From positions 1-56,770 of the IMG/VR virus record IMGVR_UViG_3300037423_000513: a stretch of 56,770 bases of DNA. The stretch is one strand, 5' to 3'. Within the stretch, counting starts at the first letter, position 1. Each line of letters opens with the position of its first letter. The translations under genes and the position numbers were made by a program. Positions 5,400 through 41,194 of this stretch are shown in pieces. The notes beneath the pieces were generated by a model. It was not told where the DNA came from, did no database searches, and saw only the letters and a program-made list of their open reading frames with translations. This DNA is from a virus. Its lineage: Duplodnaviria > Caudoviricetes.

Positions 5400-6848
5400 A
5401 TGGATATGACATGGGAGCCGTACCCGCTTGACAGCGTACGGGCTACGACGGTGTTCGTCCATGCGGCGACCCCACTGGAGGTTTTGCAGGGCACGTCAAC
5501 GACTCCGTACGAGATCACGCGGTTCTGCACGTCGGTTCGACAGTCTCCGAACGAGGTGTCTGTTGGGCTGGCATGGCACGACGAACTGTACGGAGAAAAC
5601 CAGCCGCGATTCGGCCAAATCCTTGAGGTCAAGCTGGAGGAGCGTGGTTTCTGGATCGGGATTATCCAGTCAATCAACGATTTCCGCCTGTCGTCTGGCC
5701 AGAAGTCGATGACGCTTGTCGCGCGATCGCGCGATGCCTCACCGCTCTGGCGAGAAACGCGTCGCCTGACTGATATCTACCCGGTATCGACGCCACTCGA
5801 TTACATTGCGCGCCAAATCTGCCGCGGAATCGGAGTTGCCGACGCCGAGATCGGCCCGCTGAATATCCCAGGCTACACGGTGCACTCGAACACGCAGCTG
5901 GCCGACCTGCCGCCGTGGCAGATGTTGACGGTCCTGATGCAGCCTTCGGGACTTGAGCCATACGTCGATGCGCTTGGACGACTGAAGTCCATTTCGCGTG
6001 ATACGACGCGGGCGGCAGACATCGAGTTGGCTGACAACACCCGGCTGCTCAGCGTGAATGGCTCGAAATCGCGTTCACCGGTTACCGAAGTAAAGATCAA
6101 GTGGCTCGACCCGAATCTCACTGAGGTCTCGCAGCAGGACCGGATCCTCGACAAAGCTACGATGACGGCAGGATTTTTCAAGTTGAGGCTGGAGCGCGAA
6201 GTCACCTTCAGCCAGGACGGCACACAGCGTGCGCGAAACACGCATATGGTGGTGCGGCAATCGGCTAACGCCGGCCTACTACCCGTCTGCAGTGAGAACT
6301 ACAGCCAGAAGAGCATCACTTCCGGGCAAATCGTGCTGACGACGTCCGCATGGGCGCCGGGACTCGCGACAGCATCCATCGCAGCAAAACTTCTGGCACA
6401 CAAAATACCCGACGGCGTGGTTGGCGGCATAACGATCCCAAGGGGACGCATAGTAGAAGGTTTCGCCGACGTCTCAATCATGGTGACGATGATGTCGATC
6501 GGAACCGGCGTCTATGAAATATGGGGTACGCCCTACGACATGGTGCATGCCCGGAATACCACCACAGCCTACGGCAAGACCGTCAAGGATTGGGAAGTCA
6601 ACGTCTCCGAGATCGAGAACGACTTCGTGATGAACCAGGAGCAGTCCGAGGGATTCGCGGTCAGGGAACTGACTTACTCCTACCGCGCCGCCAGTTCCTA
6701 CAACATCTCGATTGTCGATGACCCGCGTATCGAACGCGGCGACATCATTTCACTGAAGGACGGTAGCCGCGTGTACGTCACGGACTATGCACGCGACCTG
6801 TCGCATGGCTCGCCGGCGAAGCTCGATATCACCGGATTCAGGTGCTAA
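5400..6848 (+). CDS. Tail tip/baseplate hub-like protein
   Basis: Long ORF in tail cluster; C-terminal DPRIERGDIISL typical of hub proteins; ATG 5400 after terminator. Confidence 0.6.
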   Translation: MDMTWEPYPLDSVRATTVFVHAATPLEVLQGTSTTPYEITRFCTSVRQSPNEVSVGLAWHDELYGENQPRFGQILEVKLEERGFWIGIIQSINDFRLSSGQKSMTLVARSRDASPLWRETRRLTDIYPVSTPLDYIARQICRGIGVADAEIGPLNIPGYTVHSNTQLADLPPWQMLTVLMQPSGLEPYVDALGRLKSISRDTTRAADIELADNTRLLSVNGSKSRSPVTEVKIKWLDPNLTEVSQQDRILDKATMTAGFFKLRLEREVTFSQDGTQRARNTHMVVRQSANAGLLPVCSENYSQKSITSGQIVLTTSAWAPGLATASIAAKLLAHKIPDGVVGGITIPRGRIVEGFADVSIMVTMMSIGTGVYEIWGTPYDMVHARNTTTAYGKTVKDWEVNVSEIENDFVMNQEQSEGFAVRELTYSYRAASSYNISIVDDPRIERGDIISLKDGSRVYVTDYARDLSHGSPAKLDITGFRC

Positions 6849-15183: not shown

Positions 15184-16281
15184 TCACGCAGCAATTACCT
15201 GCCAATCGCCCCTGAGATCATGATATTTGTCGGTCATTGCGGCGGTTTTGTGACCGAGCATCGACTGAGCAAAGGCAGCACCGAATTGCTCCCGGTACAG
15301 GCGCTCGGACAGGCTCCGGATCTCATGGAAACTCGGCGGGGTGCGCCCCTCGGCCGCCTTGATGCCGGCAGCTTCACGGGCATTCTGGAAAGCATTCGAC
15401 AGGCCGTTACTTGTCACCCGATCACCGGGCTTGGCTGATCCCTGATGTTCGACGTGGTGGACGAGATACTGCGTAGTGATCAGGTCCCTACATGCCTGCA
15501 CTGCCTCACCGATAGATACGCCGACCTTGGCCAACCGAATATCTCCGCTCAGCCGGAGTTTGACGGTCCCGTTGCTCTTTCCTTGGGTGACGTGCAAATA
15601 CCCTTCGCGCCAGTCCGAGAACTTCATGCTCGCGATGTCGTCACGGCGTTGGGCCGTGGTCAGTGCCAAGTACATAGCGCGCTGGAGCCACCGTGGCGCT
15701 TTTGCATGGATTGCGTGGAACTGCTCGAGTGACAGACGCTCGCGCTTTACCTGAGGCCGCGGCGCCCTGGTTGCGGAGACTGGATTGCGACCAACGTCGA
15801 TCAGACCTTGCGTTTCGGCCCAGCGGAACACGTCACTCATGCGCGCTCGCACAGCATTGGCTGTCGCTTCTCCGCTTTCTTCCTCAACTTCCTCCAGAAA
15901 CTTCGCCACGTGCGCTGTGGTGATATCCTTCAGCCGGCGCTTGCCGATATCCGCCTCTGTCATCTTTTTGATGTACATCGTGCAGGCGCGAATCGTGTTG
16001 TCGCGAGGCTTCTTTTTCTCCAGCCACAGTTCCTTGTAGACTGGTAGCCAACCCTCAAGCGTGTATTCCGTCTTGCCCATCACCCAATCGACCAGCGATG
16101 ACGGCTCACGCGTTGCCAGTGCCGCATTAGCCTTGCGCGCCTGCTGCACGGCGTGCGCTTTATCCCGCCCAAGCCCTTTTTGCGTCTTCTCGATCGGGTT
16201 ACGGTAGTAGAAGTACCCTGCCGGGTTCTGGTACAGGTTCGGCGGCAGGGCACGGTTCTTGGCTAAACGTCTACGGCCCAT
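15184..16281 (-). CDS. int: Tyrosine integrase, lambda-type with arm-binding domain
   Basis: TAQRRDDI (R), FHEIRSL (H-x-x-R), LGHK, DKY motifs; N-terminal LPPNLY arm domain. Confidence 0.95.
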   Translation of the reverse strand: MGRRRLAKNRALPPNLYQNPAGYFYYRNPIEKTQKGLGRDKAHAVQQARKANAALATREPSSLVDWVMGKTEYTLEGWLPVYKELWLEKKKPRDNTIRACTMYIKKMTEADIGKRRLKDITTAHVAKFLEEVEEESGEATANAVRARMSDVFRWAETQGLIDVGRNPVSATRAPRPQVKRERLSLEQFHAIHAKAPRWLQRAMYLALTTAQRRDDIASMKFSDWREGYLHVTQGKSNGTVKLRLSGDIRLAKVGVSIGEAVQACRDLITTQYLVHHVEHQGSAKPGDRVTSNGLSNAFQNAREAAGIKAAEGRTPPSFHEIRSLSERLYREQFGAAFAQSMLGHKTAAMTDKYHDLRGDWQVIAA

Positions 16282-27440: not shown

Positions 27441-27611
27441 ATGCCGAACAATCGCGAAGTCGACAAGCCGGAACAACTGGAGGCGAAAGTGCTGCAAAAC
27501 TTGCGGATGATGACGCCCGAGGCGCGAGCAGAGCTGCTTGCCATCTCAGCGCTTTACGTTGAATCATTTCCGCTGCACCCCATTCTCCGCCTGATTCGAT
27601 CCAGTAGCTGA
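27441..27611 (+). CDS. 56-aa putative antirepressor resembling the cI C-terminal domain
   Basis: Read manually: MPNNREVDKPEQLEAKVLQNLRMMTPEARAELLAISALYVESFPLHPILRLIRSSS; AGGTG RBS; converges on and overlaps the cI 3' end. Confidence 0.55.
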   Translation: MPNNREVDKPEQLEAKVLQNLRMMTPEARAELLAISALYVESFPLHPILRLIRSSS

Positions 27612-28046
27612 GTTTTCTTCTGTTGTATCTTCTGCAGTACTTACCAGGCCAGCTGCAATCTTCATATAGCTCATCGCAACGCTCTGCTTGTGCTTAGTAA
27701 GGCTTCGGTACAAGTCAAGCAGCCTAGCCTCGTCTGCATCAACTCGTTGCAGCCAGGTTTCGTTCACTACAGGTGGTGGGGTGGCTACAGGAATCTCCGT
27801 GACCTTGGCAGATCCAGCGCGAGGCGGCTCGCCAGTCCCCTCGTGAAGCCACTCAAACGAGACATTACAAGCTCTAGCCAACTTACGGAGCGTATCCGTT
27901 TCAGGTCCCTGCTTAGTCGGTCCCTTCAGGATTCTGTTGATTGTCGGCTGAGGTACGCCCGACAAGCGCGCCAGCGCATTTTGAGAAAAGCCAGCTTTCC
28001 TCATCGCCTCATCAAGCCGAGTTGACACTGTTGATGGATTGTTCAT
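27564..28046 (-). CDS. cI: cI-like XRE HTH repressor lacking an S24 autoprotease domain
   Basis: SQNALARLSGVPQPTINRIL HTH; short helical C-terminus; divergent from cro. Confidence 0.85.
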   Translation of the reverse strand: MNNPSTVSTRLDEAMRKAGFSQNALARLSGVPQPTINRILKGPTKQGPETDTLRKLARACNVSFEWLHEGTGEPPRAGSAKVTEIPVATPPPVVNETWLQRVDADEARLLDLYRSLTKHKQSVAMSYMKIAAGLVSTAEDTTEENSATGSNQAENGVQRK

Positions 28047-28053
28047 CGCGCGA

Positions 28054-28132
28054 TTATCCACGTGCGTATATGTGTCGCGCAAATTTCTATCCAAGCGCGT
28101 ATTGACTTTCCAATCCAAGCGCGTATAGTTAG
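28054..28132 (+). promoter_or_regulatory. PR promoter and three operators
   Basis: TTGACT (28102-28107), TATAGT (28124-28129); ATCCAAGCGCGTAT x2 plus ATCCACGTGCGTAT; near-identical to the PL block. Confidence 0.85.
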
Positions 28133-28137
28133 GGCGT

Positions 28138-28350
28138 ATGGACAAAGACATCGCGACCCTCCTAGAGGAAATCAGAACTGCATCGGGCTGGAGTCAGGCC
28201 AGGATCGCTTGCGAACTTGGCACTACGCAGCCAACCGTAAATCGCCTTCTTCATGGGCAGTCGGATTGCAAGGCAAGCACCTTGATTGCTATCCGAGCAC
28301 TGCATCAAACACTCATGAGGCGGCGTCGTAGAAGGAACGGTCCGCACTAG
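28138..28350 (+). CDS. cro: Cro-like HTH protein
   Basis: WSQARIACELGTTQPTVNRLL HTH; first gene after PR, short or no leader. Confidence 0.8.
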   Translation: MDKDIATLLEEIRTASGWSQARIACELGTTQPTVNRLLHGQSDCKASTLIAIRALHQTLMRRRRRRNGPH

Positions 28351-37026: not shown

Positions 37027-37451
37027 GCTATTGCAGATTCAGCAGTGACAATTGGAGGTCCGACGTCTACGTGTATGAGCACGTTAGCGGTGGCTTCGTC
37101 ACTCACGTGGCAGGCAATAAGCGGATCTTCCCGCCAATCCCTGAGATCCCACTCTCTTGGCTGCCTCGCTTTGGTGGCGAGTTTTCAATGGCGGAGCGGC
37201 GGGTTATCTACCCAAGTAGGTGGCATTCGTTCGCCGCCGGATGCTGTTACCGGGCATATGCGCTATCGCATCGCCTTAGCATGTGGTCGCTGAGCGTAAT
37301 CCCATCGAAGAATATCGGCCTTCCGCATGACGGTGCAGCATTCCATGATGAAACGGCGGGCGAATGCGCGGACCGCCTGCGAGACCTGCGCGCCATGGGT
37401 TATCACGTTCCTCAACACGCGATTGATGCGCTGACCGAGGAGGTAGCATGA
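37023..37451 (+). CDS. Conserved phage hypothetical protein
   Basis: MSYCRFS...SDVYVY...GYHVPQHAIDAL pattern. Confidence 0.6.
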   Translation: MSYCRFSSDNWRSDVYVYEHVSGGFVTHVAGNKRIFPPIPEIPLSWLPRFGGEFSMAERRVIYPSRWHSFAAGCCYRAYALSHRLSMWSLSVIPSKNIGLPHDGAAFHDETAGECADRLRDLRAMGYHVPQHAIDALTEEVA

Positions 37452-37798
37452 ACGCGCCAACCACCCAAGCAATCCTCGAAAAAGCTCCGCAAGCCGACAG
37501 CCCATTCGTCACCGTCATGAAGCTATGGGCGCGCTGGATGACACTAACCGACAGACAGCACGCTGGTGGCTGGGCTCATCCGCAAGACGTTAAGGAGTTC
37601 ATGCGCGCAGGGGAGGCGGTCGACACGATGGTTAACGATCTGCCAAGTTCGCACCGGTGGGCAATCTACCGGGCGTACGGCATCGCGACCGTGTGGCGGT
37701 TCCCGGCTTTGTCGCTTGCCGACGTCGTGATCGAGGCCGAAAATATTTTGACGCCGAGGATGCTGAGAAATGTTGACGTCAGGAGATATTTCAGTTAG
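37448..37798 (+). CDS. Late-gene antiterminator (Q-like)
   Basis: WARWM...EAVDTMVNDLP..HRWAIYRAY; position before late promoter and terminator. Confidence 0.65.
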   Translation: MNAPTTQAILEKAPQADSPFVTVMKLWARWMTLTDRQHAGGWAHPQDVKEFMRAGEAVDTMVNDLPSSHRWAIYRAYGIATVWRFPALSLADVVIEAENILTPRMLRNVDVRRYFS

Positions 37799-37801
37799 GC
37801 T
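37773..37801 (+). promoter_or_regulatory. Late promoter pR'-like
   Basis: TTGACG, 17 nt, TAGGCT. Confidence 0.65.
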
Positions 37802-37839
37802 ACTATTGCTAGATGTCACAACTGCGCTCTAGCGAAACG

Positions 37840-37870
37840 AAGCCCGCCCCGAAAGGTCAGCGGGTTTTTG
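37840..37870 (+). terminator. tR'-like terminator
   Basis: AGCCCGC-CCCGAAAGGTCA-GCGGGTT plus T tract. Confidence 0.65.
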
Positions 37871-38009: not shown

Positions 38010-38240
38010 ATGAAAATCTCTATGTCCACCGTTCTGATCTACTTCGGCATGCTGATCTTCGATACTGCTGTACTTGGCGGCTTCGCCTACCTCGTTGCCG
38101 AGAGGGGCTGGTCGGCATGGTGGATGCTGTTGGCAGTCCTGATGTGCTCTGGATCGAATCCAAGCAAGATTATCGAAGCAAATAAGGAGGCGTCATGCGC
38201 AACGAAGGTGCAGGAATCGCCTGAAAATAAGGCCAAGTAG
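38010..38240 (+). CDS. Small two-TM membrane protein
   Basis: Hydrophobic ORF, GWSAWWMLLAVLM. Confidence 0.6.
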   Translation: MKISMSTVLIYFGMLIFDTAVLGGFAYLVAERGWSAWWMLLAVLMCSGSNPSKIIEANKEASCATKVQESPENKAK

Positions 38241-38283
38241 CGCGTAACTTCGGGAGAAGCGCGAGCCTAGGAGAGCCTAGGCG

Positions 38284-38352
38284 CCACACTGCTGTTGCCT
38301 GTTCTTCGGATTGGACCGAGTTTAGCGACGGGCGCAGGCAGCAGCAGTGTGG
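38284..38352 (+). ncRNA. 18-bp hairpin preceding tRNA-like elements
   Basis: CCACACTGCTGTTGCCTG / CAGGCAGCAGCAGTGTGG with one G-U pair. Confidence 0.55.
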
Positions 38353-38479
38353 TAAATGCGTAGGGAATTCCGGTTGATGACCGGCTAAGCCGTAGTCCAT
38401 TACGCCGTACGCGACGGCAAACTCCTCTTTAGAAGTAATGGCGACCACACGCTTCACTGGCGTAACCAGTGGCCACACA
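38347..38479 (+). ncRNA. tRNA-like element 1
   Basis: 7-bp closing stem GTGTGGT/GCCACAC, terminal hairpin CACTGG-CGTAA-CCAGTG, internal stems. Confidence 0.45.
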
Positions 38480-38574
38480 GAAGCGCGCGGCGTGGGTGGG
38501 TACACGCGGGTAGTGGAAAAGGATAGCGCTGTCCGCCATGATCCTAAATCCCCGTTCGACTCGGGGCCGCTTCA
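38480..38574 (+). ncRNA. tRNA-like element 2 (non-canonical anticodon arm)
   Basis: GAAGCG/CGCTTC acceptor, D-like arm GCGTG-GGTGGGTA-CACGC, canonical T arm CCCCG-TTCGACT-CGGGG. Confidence 0.6.
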
Positions 38575-38575
38575 G

Positions 38576-38698
38576 TGTGGTGAAAGCGCATAGCTGGTGC
38601 GCCTTAGTCCTTGAGCCGTCAATGCTGCAGCATTAAGGAAAGCGTGGGCCGAAAGGTCAGAGACGGACGCCGGAGATCAGCACCGGCCACCACAACCA
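38576..38698 (+). ncRNA. tRNA-like element 3 with encoded CCA
   Basis: TGTGGTG/CACCACA acceptor + A + CCA; GCGCA/TGCGC D-like arm; GCCGG/CCGGC T-like arm. Confidence 0.6.
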
Positions 38699-38729
38699 GT
38701 CTCCTCCAACCTACCAAGGCTTGGACTTT

Positions 38730-38767
38730 GCCGTGACCGCAGAAATGCGCTCGCGGCTTTTTTATTT
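38730..38767 (+). terminator. Terminator-like hairpin
   Basis: GCCGTGA...TCGCGGC followed by T tract. Confidence 0.55.
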
Positions 38768-38821
38768 AGAGGTTCGCCGCACGAAGCAGCGCGGATAGCC
38801 TCAACACGATTGAGGCAACCA

Positions 38822-41194
38822 ATGCCGTTCCCGCAAGAGCTAGTAGCCCCGACCTACGCGAAGGGCACGATGCCCGTTGGTACGCCGGTCAAAGTGTTCG
38901 CGCCGTATGTGGCGCCTGCATTTACCACGCCGGCAGTACCGCTGGGCGGAATCGTCACCAGCGTGACGCTGCAAAGCACGACAGCAATGGATCAGGCCAA
39001 TGTGCCGTTCACGTTTGGGCAGCCCTTCAAGCGCGGCGACCTGGCTCCGGACTGCGCTCTCGTCGGCGCGTTCGCTGGCAAGGCTGATCTGCCGCTGCAG
39101 GTGAACGTCAAGGCCACGCACGACGACGGTTCGGTGCGACATGCGATCATCAGCGGCGTGTTGCCGAGCCTGCCTGCCGGCGCGTCGGTGGTGATGGGGC
39201 TGAAACGCGCTGCTCGCGTAGTGGATGGCGGAAGCATGTCGTTACCCGCCTCGCTGCCGGCTGTCGCCTTGAATATTGCAGGTGTCGCATACACGGCAAC
39301 GCCTAGGGCCAGCGCTTTTACCTGCGTCTGGCTGGCCGGTTCGCTACTAACTGACTATGTGGCGAACGTGCCATTCGTCGACGCGTCTGGGAGCGCGCAC
39401 CCGACGCTGACCGCGCAATTTTCCGTTCGCTCCTACAGCTCCGGTGCCGTCCGCGTGGATGCCATCATCGAGCACTGCAAAGCCTACGCTTCGACTACCG
39501 ACGTCACCTACGACGTCACTATCGCAGCCAATGGCGCGACTGTGTACAGCCAAACCGGCCTTGTGCACACCCCGTGCGCTCGTTGGAAGAAATCGTTCTG
39601 GTACGGCACCGCCCCGGCTCTGCACATCAAGCACGACACCGCATACCTGATCGCGTCTCGCGCTGTGCCGAACTACGACCAGGGCATCAAGATCCCGGAA
39701 TCCGTGCTGGCCGGGTACGCGACGCAACTCGCGAGCGGCAAGTTCGCTCCGATGAGCTTTGGTAACCTGCAGCCAGCAATGCCGACGACAGGCGGGCGTC
39801 CTGATCTCGGCATCATGCCCGATACCTACGTCGCAGCAGTCCTCTCGATGGACAAGCGCGCCAAGGACATCATGCTCGCTTCCGCCGATGTGGCGGGAAG
39901 CTGGGCTGCGCATCGCCGCGACGACAGCAGCGGCCCGATGAAGGGCATGCCGCTCAGTGTCCTGTGCTTCCCGTACGCCACGGTCTACGGTAGCTCAGGA
40001 GACTGCGCAAACCCGATGACGGGCAAAAACGAATATCTGCCGAAGCTGGTAACGACGTCGAAGGGCAACTTCGACAGCAGCCACCAGCCCGGGTTGTACT
40101 ACCTGCCGTACCTCCTGACCGGTGATTTCTACTACCTCGAAGGCCTGCACTTCTGGTGCGCCTGGAACGCCTACAACTCGAACTGCGCTTACCGCGGCTA
40201 CGAGAAGGGGCTGGTGACTCCGGACCAGATGCGCGGCCAAGGCTGGAGCCTACGCACGCTCGCCGAATGTGCCGCAATCACACCAGACGACTGGCCGACA
40301 AAGCAGCAGTACGTGTACTGGTACGAGAGCAATATGAAGTGGTATCTGGACACGTATCTGGATGCCACAAACCCCATCTACGCCAACCAGCTCGGCATCA
40401 TCACGAATGGTGCGGTCGTCTACCCAATCAATGGCGTCGGCAGCACCGGTATCGCGCCGTGGCAAGACGACTTCTTCACGCAGGCCCTCGGTCATAGCGT
40501 CGAGTTGTTGGGCTACGACTCGGCTAAATGCCTCCTGAAGTGGAAGGCCAAATTTCAGGTCGGCCGGATGATCGGCGATGGCGTCTGTCAGATGGACGCG
40601 GCAGTGTATTCGCTCGGAGTGCGCTCGACCGCCACCTCGCCTTATTTTGCATCCCTGGCCGAGTGCTACAAGTTCACGCTGTCCGCAGACATGCAGACGT
40701 ATGCGTGCAACTCGCCCGAGCGCATTGCAGTCGTACTGAAAGAGCGTGGAGATACCATCAAGGCAGGGGATGTAGCTGGATATGCAACCAGTACCGAGGG
40801 CTACCCGGCAAACTATCAGCCGGCACTGGCCGCAGCTGTCGATTCCGGTTACACGGACGGCCTGAAAGCCTGGAGCATGTTCGCAGCACGACCGACCAAG
40901 CCGGATTACAGCACTGGCGCACAGTTCGCCATTTTGCCGCGACTGGTAACGGAAGCTGTGACCGCTCCAGCTCCAGCTCCAAGCCCAACGCCAGTACCTG
41001 CGCCGACTCCCATGCCCGACCCAGCCCCGATCCCTGTCGTTACCGTCCGCTACCAAGAGGCCAAGGCTGTCGATGTGATGGCAGCTTACGCCAAGAGCCT
41101 GACTGTTCCGACCGGCGAGACGGTATCTGGCAGCGACTGGTTCTTTGACGCAGCCAAGGGCGTTGTCGTCTTCAAGGTTACGACCACGAAGTAA
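38822..41194 (+). CDS. Free-standing paralog of the tail protein's PcRGLX/YetA-like domain, with Pro-rich linker
   Basis: Long collinear similarity to the part of 727..5337 encoded at about 2310-4290 (e.g. LQPAMPTTGGRPDLGIMPDTYV identical). Confidence 0.8.
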   Translation: MPFPQELVAPTYAKGTMPVGTPVKVFAPYVAPAFTTPAVPLGGIVTSVTLQSTTAMDQANVPFTFGQPFKRGDLAPDCALVGAFAGKADLPLQVNVKATHDDGSVRHAIISGVLPSLPAGASVVMGLKRAARVVDGGSMSLPASLPAVALNIAGVAYTATPRASAFTCVWLAGSLLTDYVANVPFVDASGSAHPTLTAQFSVRSYSSGAVRVDAIIEHCKAYASTTDVTYDVTIAANGATVYSQTGLVHTPCARWKKSFWYGTAPALHIKHDTAYLIASRAVPNYDQGIKIPESVLAGYATQLASGKFAPMSFGNLQPAMPTTGGRPDLGIMPDTYVAAVLSMDKRAKDIMLASADVAGSWAAHRRDDSSGPMKGMPLSVLCFPYATVYGSSGDCANPMTGKNEYLPKLVTTSKGNFDSSHQPGLYYLPYLLTGDFYYLEGLHFWCAWNAYNSNCAYRGYEKGLVTPDQMRGQGWSLRTLAECAAITPDDWPTKQQYVYWYESNMKWYLDTYLDATNPIYANQLGIITNGAVVYPINGVGSTGIAPWQDDFFTQALGHSVELLGYDSAKCLLKWKAKFQVGRMIGDGVCQMDAAVYSLGVRSTATSPYFASLAECYKFTLSADMQTYACNSPERIAVVLKERGDTIKAGDVAGYATSTEGYPANYQPALAAAVDSGYTDGLKAWSMFAARPTKPDYSTGAQFAILPRLVTEAVTAPAPAPSPTPVPAPTPMPDPAPIPVVTVRYQEAKAVDVMAAYAKSLTVPTGETVSGSDWFFDAAKGVVVFKVTTTK

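Follow-up and report, generated by a model that had tools for sequence, protein, structure and literature searches.

Several described RNA systems share features with the phage RNA region examined here. Lambda 6S RNA is a late-leader transcript of a lambdoid phage, and the transfer RNA (tRNA) cluster of phage T4 gives rise to co-processed stable RNAs, species 1 and 2. In Escherichia coli, 3'ETS-leuZ is a small RNA (sRNA) derived from the 3' external transcribed spacer (ETS) of a tRNA, and YrlA, a bacterial Y RNA, contains a tRNA-like module without an anticodon. According to published reports, StxS of Stx phages is a terminated late-leader transcript that acts as a regulatory sRNA (PMC7547250); phage regulatory RNAs are RNase P substrates, the C4 antisense RNA of P1/P7 being matured by RNase P via a tRNA-like feature (PMC4919922); GOLLD and ROOL are large, ornate phage-associated RNAs near tRNA genes (10.1101/2024.12.08.627333); and in Burkholderia cenocepacia, members of the Rfam family RF02278 are expressed as CU-rich double-hairpin sRNAs, the family's name reflecting growth inhibition of E. 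coli (PMC5688073). Here, we analyze positions 38239–38765 of the virus record IMGVR_UViG_3300037423_000513 (Duplodnaviria; Caudoviricetes), the window (W) being this entire 56,770-base record. This region carries a conserved, modular RNA structure of the plus strand that interchanges with tRNAs, ends in an sRNA-like module, and occupies a leader position. With a probability of roughly 0.5, we interpret it as a member of a modular, so far undescribed family of non-coding phage RNAs, a processed and late-transcribed array that would release an sRNA directed against Shine–Dalgarno (SD) sequences.

The region comprises about 530 non-coding bases just upstream of the late genes. It lies in a 570-nt gap (38241–38810) between a 76-amino-acid (aa) open reading frame (ORF) and a gene for a 794-aa protein, which holds no credible ORF; the ORFs overlapping it (111 aa on the minus strand; 51, 41, and 36 aa) matched no PHROG family at E < 0.06. 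The minimum free energy (MFE) of the whole region corresponds to z = -4.13, and none of 100 shuffled sequences folded as well. Its layout consists of a 5' module, two tandem units, and a CU-rich double-hairpin sRNA-like module with an intrinsic terminator. Each tandem unit starts with a small hairpin, continues with a long cassette hairpin whose closing stem is CCACAC/GUGUGG, and finishes with a tRNA-like domain. An earlier note, prepared from the sequence alone, had described three abutting tRNA-like RNAs. A structured, ORF-free RNA is indeed present, but it is organized as two tandem units, and a conserved 120-nt segment (38353–38472) separates what that note termed elements 1 and 2. The individual parts are as follows:

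38239–38283, plus strand: 5' module of two hairpins, the second covarying
38284–38352, plus strand: cassette hairpin 1 (element 1), closed by CCACAC (38284–89) and GUGUGG (38347–52)
38347–38451, plus strand: segment C, closable by GUGUGGU/ACCACAC, with CUCCUC (38422–27) in an unpaired loop
38455–38471, plus strand: small hairpin CACUGG-CGUAA-CCAGUG, directly before the next CCACAC
38473–38580, plus strand: cassette hairpin 2 (element 2), closed by CCACAC (38473–78) and GUGUGG (38575–80)
38576–38698, plus strand: tRNA-like domain (element 3), with a 7-bp acceptor-like stem UGUGGUG (38576–82)/CACCACA (38688–94)
38698–38765, plus strand: CU-rich double-hairpin sRNA-like module (folding z = -4.2), made up of UCUCCUCC (38700–07), a hairpin (38705–25), a terminator hairpin (38730–57), and a U6 run (38758–63)

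We define the proposed family by four features: a small hairpin directly before CCACAC; a long hairpin closed by CCACAC/GUGUGG; a second role for GUGUGG in opening a 7-bp stem closed by a hairpin-abutted CRCCACA; and a D-like hairpin after the 5' strand of that stem. The unit at 38455–38698 shows all four, and the first unit (38265–38451) is a variant.

Each of the described systems covers part of this arrangement. Like the lambdoid late-leader RNAs, the array is a structured RNA between a late promoter region and the late genes that ends in an intrinsic terminator; unlike them, it lies about 900 nt from the promoter-like site, with a small ORF and a first terminator in between, and it is an array of repeated modules with no sequence likeness to those RNAs. 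With the tRNA genes of phage leaders it shares the slot they occupy in relatives, an acceptor-like stem with a T-like hairpin and, in W, a terminal A-CCA, whereas the conserved phage domain has neither a 7-nt anticodon loop nor a T-loop consensus and goes undetected by the tRNA covariance model at E ≤ 10. The processing logic proposed below would be analogous to that of C4 RNA, although the array has no Rfam C4 match, no immunity-region context, and no antisense target in the phage. Like 3'ETS-leuZ, the CU-rich sRNA-like module lies behind a tRNA or tRNA-like 3' end, starting within about 10 nt of it and ending at a terminator; in the phages, however, the upstream element is often a tRNA mimic rather than a tRNA. 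GOLLD and ROOL are likewise structured phage RNAs of several hundred nucleotides near tRNA genes, but the array differs from them and from YrlA in its modular tandem build and in having no Rfam match, and no Ro/Rsr-like gene was found among the roughly 30 window ORFs scanned. Neither Rfam 15, nor blastn against isolate phages, nor literature searches covering few subscription journals turned up an account of the cassette or the tRNA-like domain. Searches of 50,697 isolate phage records by blastn with the region (631 nt) and with the canonical unit (156 nt, E ≤ 1) returned no match, and the motif strings occurred in rRNA or primer contexts, judging by the titles among the matches listed.

The tRNA-like domain, element 3 of the earlier note, contains a D-like hairpin followed by a branched middle in place of a 7-nt anticodon loop. 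Its T-like hairpin, GCCGG-AGAUCAGCA-CCGGC (38669–87, 5-bp stem), abuts the 3' acceptor strand with no spacer, and the domain ends with an A (38695) and, as the note had observed, CCA (38696–98). The two tRNA-like geometries in the second unit are distinct: the 7 + 5 arrangement with loop AGAUCAGCA belongs to 38576–38694, and the UUCGACU T arm belongs to 38550–66, with a six-pair acceptor. The same domain build was recovered in nine instances from eight of the first loci, with compensatory changes at acceptor pairs 1, 2, and 6 and in the T-like stem. The D-like hairpin likewise shows compensatory changes at three of its five pairs around a conserved loop (18 sequences). Across relatives, element 3 is a conserved, covarying tRNA-like domain. 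When the 56 family sequences were searched under relaxed settings, 68 candidates, false ones included, were obtained in 44 sequences, and 26 candidate rows combined all seven acceptor pairs with an abutting hairpin.

The GUGUGG strand takes part in the closure of both cassette 2 and the tRNA-like domain, so the closing stems of elements 2 and 3 are mutually exclusive. In the related locus L026 (labels beginning with L denote related viral-metagenome contigs or loci), both partners of this strand change together. Forcing the tRNA-like closure costs between 0 and 11 kcal/mol in eight loci, and +3.1 kcal/mol in W. The conservation of both pairings suggests an ordered or switchable fold.

The earlier note had placed elements 1 and 2 on a tRNA scaffold; their scaffold is instead a separate conserved hairpin motif. 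Cassette hairpin 1 forms a continuous 19-bp stem with a variable tip (-43.5 kcal/mol, z = -7.3). The 6–7-bp closing stem followed by an A that the note had described is present, but it is the base of this long hairpin, and there is no T-arm-like hairpin. A common cassette base consists of a 7-bp outer helix, a 2 × 2 internal loop, and an inner helix, the two cassettes of W being variants without the internal loop. Family-wide, the small hairpin stands directly 5' of each CCACAC, and the type seen in W also precedes cassettes in L012, L028, L277, L295, L296, L299, L303, and L304.

Scanning for cassette flanks yielded 39 stretches, 34 of them new loci, three of these representing one coding-like sequence and probably due to chance. 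All 13 instances found independently of their own sequence form seven of seven outer pairs, with 24 G·U against a single A·C. The inner helix was assessed in 34 of 37 distinct cassettes after a filter of at least 7 of 10 pairs, which biases the paired fraction upward: 316 of 340 cells are paired, with G·U outnumbering A·C by 38 to 6. Positions 1–2 were fixed by the scan pattern, several pair types occur at each of positions 3–9, and a U·G is kept in 26 of the 34. Given the excess of G·U over A·C, the conserved structure is that of an RNA of the plus strand. Together, the conserved bases and the wholesale swapping of tips support the view that the tips are variable inserts on a scaffold. The earlier note's suggestion of variable antisense inserts finds support in the swapped tips but none, within the phage itself, for the antisense part: complementarity between 38241–38770 and the rest of the phage amounts to nothing longer than 12 nt (E ≥ 1.4). 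We also observed that L278, L284, L293, L301, L303, and L307 share a promoter-resembling stretch about 30–60 nt before the cassette, just 5' of the small hairpin, with a TTGAAT-like and then a TATGCG/TATGGG-like hexamer; in these loci, the unit may be its own transcription unit.

The tip of cassette 2 (38480–38574) can be drawn as a cloverleaf: an acceptor-like stem of 6 bp carries a D-like arm, an elongated middle arm, and a T arm, and an A follows at 38574. The textbook T loop attributed to this element is there (CCCCG-UUCGACU-CGGGG, 38550–66). As also claimed, elements 2 and 3 both lack a 7-nt anticodon loop, the former being an insert-bearing cloverleaf in which the loop appears only on removal of a 16-nt insert and the latter having its branched middle. 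With default settings, ARAGORN called no tRNA or transfer-messenger RNA (tmRNA) in the window. Under relaxed settings with introns, which gave 2 hits in 300 dinucleotide shuffles, it took 38480–38574 for a tRNA-Thr(AGU)-like gene in which 16 nt are inserted after position 37. At 80% of the score threshold, three extra calls, a tmRNA among them, were discarded, as this setting gave 98 hits in 300 shuffles. Rfam 15 gave no match at gathering score (29 bits for the tRNA model RF00005), and searches at E ≤ 10 with 1.2 kb and 366 nt found no tRNA, tmRNA, Y RNA, C4, GOLLD, or ROOL. Since the cloverleaf is unique to this phage, element 2 is indistinguishable from a decaying tRNA. A T-arm hairpin lies within CCACAC..GUGUGG in only 5 of 95 candidate stretches, from four sources (W, L024, L286, and L306; 0.21 expected from shuffles), which makes a tRNA-derived tip like that of W the exception.

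Real tRNAs occur at this position in relatives, as the note had stated for lambdoid phages. Of 22 loci, 7 have a canonical tRNA on the same strand no more than 800 nt past the 5' module, and of 34 further loci, 4 have one near the cassette. In L002, a tRNA-Tyr sits exactly between the cassette hairpin and the CU-rich module, which is the slot of the tRNA-like domain in W. In L294 (cassette 5859–5948, plus strand), a canonical tRNA-His starts 4 nt inside the 3' GUGUGG strand, so that some bases belong to both the leader hairpin and the tRNA's acceptor stem, which compete for them. Relaxed ARAGORN settings added tRNA-like calls in W, L020, L025, and L026. Those of W (38480–38574), L025 (6578–6682), and L026 (positions 501–617 after its 5' module) carry anticodon-loop inserts of 15–26 nt, and the L025 copy scores 31.4 bits on the Rfam tRNA model. 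L003 has a T arm that remained uncalled.

The 5' module is conserved as well. The 16-nt loop of its first hairpin, GUAACUUCGGGAGAAG, matches exactly that of a 23S rRNA hairpin in the nine 23S loci fetched, which we take to be helix 62 with the base of helix 63. Both RNAs have a 4–5-bp stem and then a GGUGAAA hairpin, but the stems of the phage module differ, covary independently, and lie outside any rRNA context. The likeness ends after 25–37 nt; as it is confined to this first portion, an rRNA origin of the whole array was rejected. A scan with the 16-mer returned 23 viral stretches, of which 16 hold the full two-hairpin module, 1 (L025) a partial copy, and 6 are chance matches; a gapped pattern added three loci with the module and a metagenome scan one more (L197). 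In alignment A2 (21 sequences), 92.5% of cells are paired, against 13–41% in slid controls, and 7 of 10 pairs show compensatory change. Model R1 scores 54.8 bits in W, 54.6–72.6 bits across the family, and 34.4 bits on the partial L025 copy, compared with 20–36 bits, over the whole model, on four 23S rRNA loci. Scanning metagenomes with the 5' motif gave 118 hits, 107 of them flagged as rRNA-like and the remainder, bar one, rRNA-looking; genome contigs returned almost exclusively large-subunit (LSU) rRNA. Model R1 had no match in 151 sampled genomes of one class, where 40 candidates were scored per genome, which is not evidence of absence. The module occurs in only 2 of the 34 newly found cassette loci, indicating that the modules combine freely.

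At the 3' end of the array, the anti-SD-like sequence that the note had located at about 38700 is TCTCCTCC (38700–38707). Here, RF02278, the Betaproteobacteria toxic small RNA and the one notable Rfam match at E ≤ 10, aligns to 38698–38765 with 29.6 bits (E = 0.0012; gathering score 50), and it scores 41.9, 40.0, and 24.3 bits in L012, L033, and L036, respectively. The two share a CU-rich single-stranded 5' end (UCUCCUCC), a hairpin, and a terminator with a U run, all of model positions 1–64 being aligned. The module of W thus has the RF02278 layout of a CU-rich unpaired motif and two hairpins, the second a terminator. It differs in being phage-borne, in having one CU motif rather than two, and in being fused behind a tRNA-like domain instead of standing alone. 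The RF02278 likeness hints that the host may be a betaproteobacterium. Across eight aligned copies, GUCUCCU is invariant, and 6 of 16 predicted pairs are compensatory. In seven of these eight loci, the 3' end of a tRNA or tRNA-like element lies within about 10 nt upstream of the module, an ORF end taking its place in L004. A terminator-like end was found within 900 nt in 13 of 22 loci, and a CU-rich motif in the preceding 100 nt in 11 of those 13, a tally made without a control. An exact 23-mer of the module had no match among viral contigs.

Comparison with relatives shows how these modules are exchanged. Relatives of the 794-aa protein were found in nine viral contigs. The last 114–132 nt of the gap are 84–93% identical in L002, L003, and L004, and the first 49 nt are also conserved in L002 and L003, whereas the middle differs. 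The closest relative, L012, is a mosaic: its 5' module, segment C with the small hairpin, and leader are nearly identical to those of W, but its tRNA-like domain is unrelated, as are the interiors of its two cassettes, that of cassette 1 being replaced between identical flanks. Between the two, 38347–38478 (131 nt) has five differences, two of which make up a compensatory replacement of U-A by G-C in the 7-bp stem, and segment C is 96% identical although the neighboring modules are replaced. Module order is not fixed either, as the 5' module is preceded by a second cassette in L031 (5712–5779, minus strand) and by an RF02278-like element (24.3 bits) in L036 (1443–1502, plus strand). Overall, copies of the modules were found in more than 50 viral-metagenome contigs, where they show compensatory changes and an excess of G·U.

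The stretch itself is contained in three soil DNA sequencing runs, in which contigs break at 38738–38766. One contig joins 37869 to 38737, terminator to terminator, showing that the entire RNA array, together with the small ORFs, is missing from some relatives. A different contig skips 38479–38668, and in one contig a tRNA 3' end precedes 38448. Taken with the mosaic comparison, these natural variants make the array an exchangeable accessory block that is itself built of exchangeable modules.

We also examined the genomic setting of the array, whose immediate flanks comprise the following features:

37448–37798, plus strand: 116-aa ORF, a possible Q-type antiterminator (lead only)
37773–37801, plus strand: promoter-like site TTGACG-17 nt-TAGGCT, from an alignment of W, L012, and L003
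37806–37868, plus strand: conserved hairpin (37806–35), then a terminator-like hairpin with a U run (37839–68); folding z = -2.5
38010–38240, plus strand: hydrophobic small ORF of 76 aa, conserved in L003 and L012, its stop codon abutting the RNA array
38769–38825, plus strand: conserved leader hairpins ahead of the ATG (38823) of the 794-aa gene; folding z = -3.0

The 116-aa ORF matched no Pfam or PHROG family. In a protein-language-model atlas search, it fell near the antiterminator Q family cluster (rank 4, score 0.90, 175 shared features), which is annotated with PF06530 (59%) and PF06576 (43%), and this offers a lead to a Q-like gene. The promoter-like site overlaps the 3' end of this ORF and has a TAGGCT hexamer at -10 in W where two relatives have TAGTAT. 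It was not flagged in a consensus promoter scan, and we infer it to be a weak candidate for the late promoter. The ORF end, this site, and the hairpins at 37806–37868 are almost invariant in W, L012, and L003, and the hairpin piece is also found upstream in L002 and L004. Terminator-like hairpins with U runs lie at 37839–68 and 38730–63, with the terminase and portal genes farther downstream. With the Q-like ORF, the promoter-like site, and the first terminator upstream and late genes downstream, the late-leader position claimed by the earlier note is a fair description, one in which the promoter and Q are inferred. Side by side, the promoter-like site, hairpin, and terminator-like hairpin (window 37760–37870) form a short lambda-6S-like unit of about 60–70 nt.

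Downstream of the array, the leader at 38769–38825 is nearly invariant in five phages (W, L002, L003, L004, and L012). It can form competing hairpins in which AGCCUC pairs either with an upstream GAGGUU or with the GAGG located 8 nt before the ATG, an arrangement that, in the predicted folds, resembles an SD-hiding switch.

In the reading we favor, the array would be transcribed as part of the late transcript and cut into stable pieces by host tRNA-maturation enzymes, with RNase P acting 5' of the acceptor-like stems and RNase E/Z-type cuts falling on their 3' side. The anticodon-less tRNA-like domains would serve mainly as processing punctuation, which would leave the anticodon region free to vary. 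Cleavage after the last tRNA-like domain or tRNA would expose CUCCUCC as the single-stranded 5' end of an sRNA that might pair with SD sequences and damp translation. GUGUGG would pair either with the upstream CCACAC, closing the cassette, or with the downstream CCACA, closing the tRNA-like domain.

Several observations weigh against a processed array of this kind. All three sequencing runs that contain the stretch are DNA. Since exact motifs served as seeds for many family alignments, some of the conservation arises by construction, and the family sequences are related, representing few lineages whose counts are not independent events. Neither the module of W nor those of its relatives reach the RF02278 gathering score. 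The T-like loop AGAUCAGCA is not the T-loop consensus, the CCA after the tRNA-like domain is not conserved in relatives, and the cloverleaf at 38480–38574 was found in this phage only and hence shows no covariation. In the leader itself, the Q assignment is a feature-search lead (0.90), the promoter-like site is weak (three of six matches in the -10 hexamer of W), and a Q-modified polymerase reading through terminators would mean that the 3' end of the sRNA does not come from termination.

Other explanations account for part of the same evidence. The array could supply tRNA-mimic decoys, its anticodon-less domains and insert-bearing cloverleaf being made in bulk late in infection to soak up host tRNA-targeting defense nucleases or sensors, or tRNA-binding enzymes, with processing being secondary. 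An acceptor/T-like minihelix whose anticodon region is variable or disrupted, the recurrent tRNA-like genes with 15–26-nt anticodon-loop inserts, and the occupation of the same slot by real tRNAs fit such a role, as does the rapid turnover through module swapping between near relatives that an arms race predicts. Nevertheless, anticodon-loop nucleases usually read the anticodon loop, the very part that is missing, the conserved T-like loop is not tRNA-like, and no defense or counter-defense gene was found nearby, leaving this explanation unlikely. Less likely again is a tRNA graveyard, a slot that gains tRNA genes by recombination and retains functionless remnants and leftover leader sequence. 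The silence of default ARAGORN and Rfam, the tip of element 2, for which relaxed settings are needed to obtain a tRNA with a 16-nt insert and which is without relatives, the uncalled T arm in L003, and the absence of the whole block from natural relatives are all expected from it. A graveyard fits the unique cloverleaf of element 2 but not the non-tRNA parts, which are conserved in many divergent contigs with compensatory changes, a retained U·G, and more G·U than A·C, nor does it explain why segment C stays 96% identical between W and L012 while its neighbors are replaced.

No more probable, in our view, is a purely cis-acting leader that controls antitermination, mRNA stability, or late-operon translation and gives off no trans-acting RNA. 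The array does separate a promoter-proximal terminator from the late genes and itself ends in a second terminator, and conserved hairpins can mask or expose the GAGG that precedes the first late gene; yet most of the 34 additional loci have neither the leader context nor the 5' module (R1 in 2 of 34), relatives manage without the block, and the tRNA-like minihelix and the interchange with tRNAs are left unexplained. A DNA-level element such as an attachment, packaging, or recombination site, whose inverted repeats merely look like helices, might be suspected from the CCACAC/GTGTGG repeats that flank swapped inserts and from the array of L028, which lies directly upstream of a terminase small-subunit-like ORF (read by eye). 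It is very improbable: the G·U to A·C counts (24 to 1 and 38 to 6) fit only a plus-strand RNA, the integrase is 22 kb distant, and the unit is completed by a terminator and an sRNA-like module. Beyond the processed array, a more far-reaching proposal, which we hold to be doubtful, is a new class of phage RNA in the form of a tandem, switchable tRNA-mimic array. Each GUGUGG strand would close either a display hairpin with an exchangeable tip or a tRNA-like minihelix, and its parts would mimic three components of the translation machinery, namely a 23S hairpin, anticodon-less tRNAs, and the 16S anti-SD. Processing by tRNA-maturation enzymes late in infection would then let the pieces usurp or protect translation, for instance by serving as decoys for RNA-targeting defenses.

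Among phages, tRNA genes and a few small RNAs are already known, but the mix of anticodon-less tRNA-like domains, an exact copy of an rRNA hairpin loop, and an anti-SD sRNA is undescribed in the sources searched. Should the modules prove to be processed and active, they would represent a new route by which temperate phages tune or protect translation, and a natural case of tRNA-like punctuation releasing an sRNA. Defined by model R1 and curated motifs, the family is searchable, and its swapped-tip variants provide ready comparisons.

Beyond the leader, the gene order of the window is that of a temperate lambdoid siphovirus, and the best match of its portal protein, at 49.2% identity, points to no close named phage. 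The main landmarks are the following:

15184–16281, minus strand: integrase
27564–28151, minus strand: CI-like repressor
41792, 43063, and 52128, downstream of the RNA region: terminase large subunit, portal, and tape measure, respectively

Between the integrase and the RNA region lie genes for a RecT-like protein, an exonuclease, the CI-like repressor, a primosomal protein, and a DnaB-like helicase, with a methyltransferase, a Holliday-junction resolvase, an HNH/endonuclease VII, and then small ORFs also preceding the RNA region. A reading of the array as the phage attachment site (attP) was rejected, the integrase being 22 kb away. The single family match of the 76-aa ORF was a faint one to holin (E = 0.13), and inside its 3' end, a strong AAGGAGG and, after it, a nine-codon ORF (38186–38225) are kept in L003 and L012. 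The 794-aa gene (38810–41194), the first after the array, encodes an N-terminal PcRGLX-like domain of polysaccharide-lyase type, and its product is perhaps a depolymerase; the contig of L006, L009, and L012 carries two diverged copies of this protein, with 57% and 90% identity.

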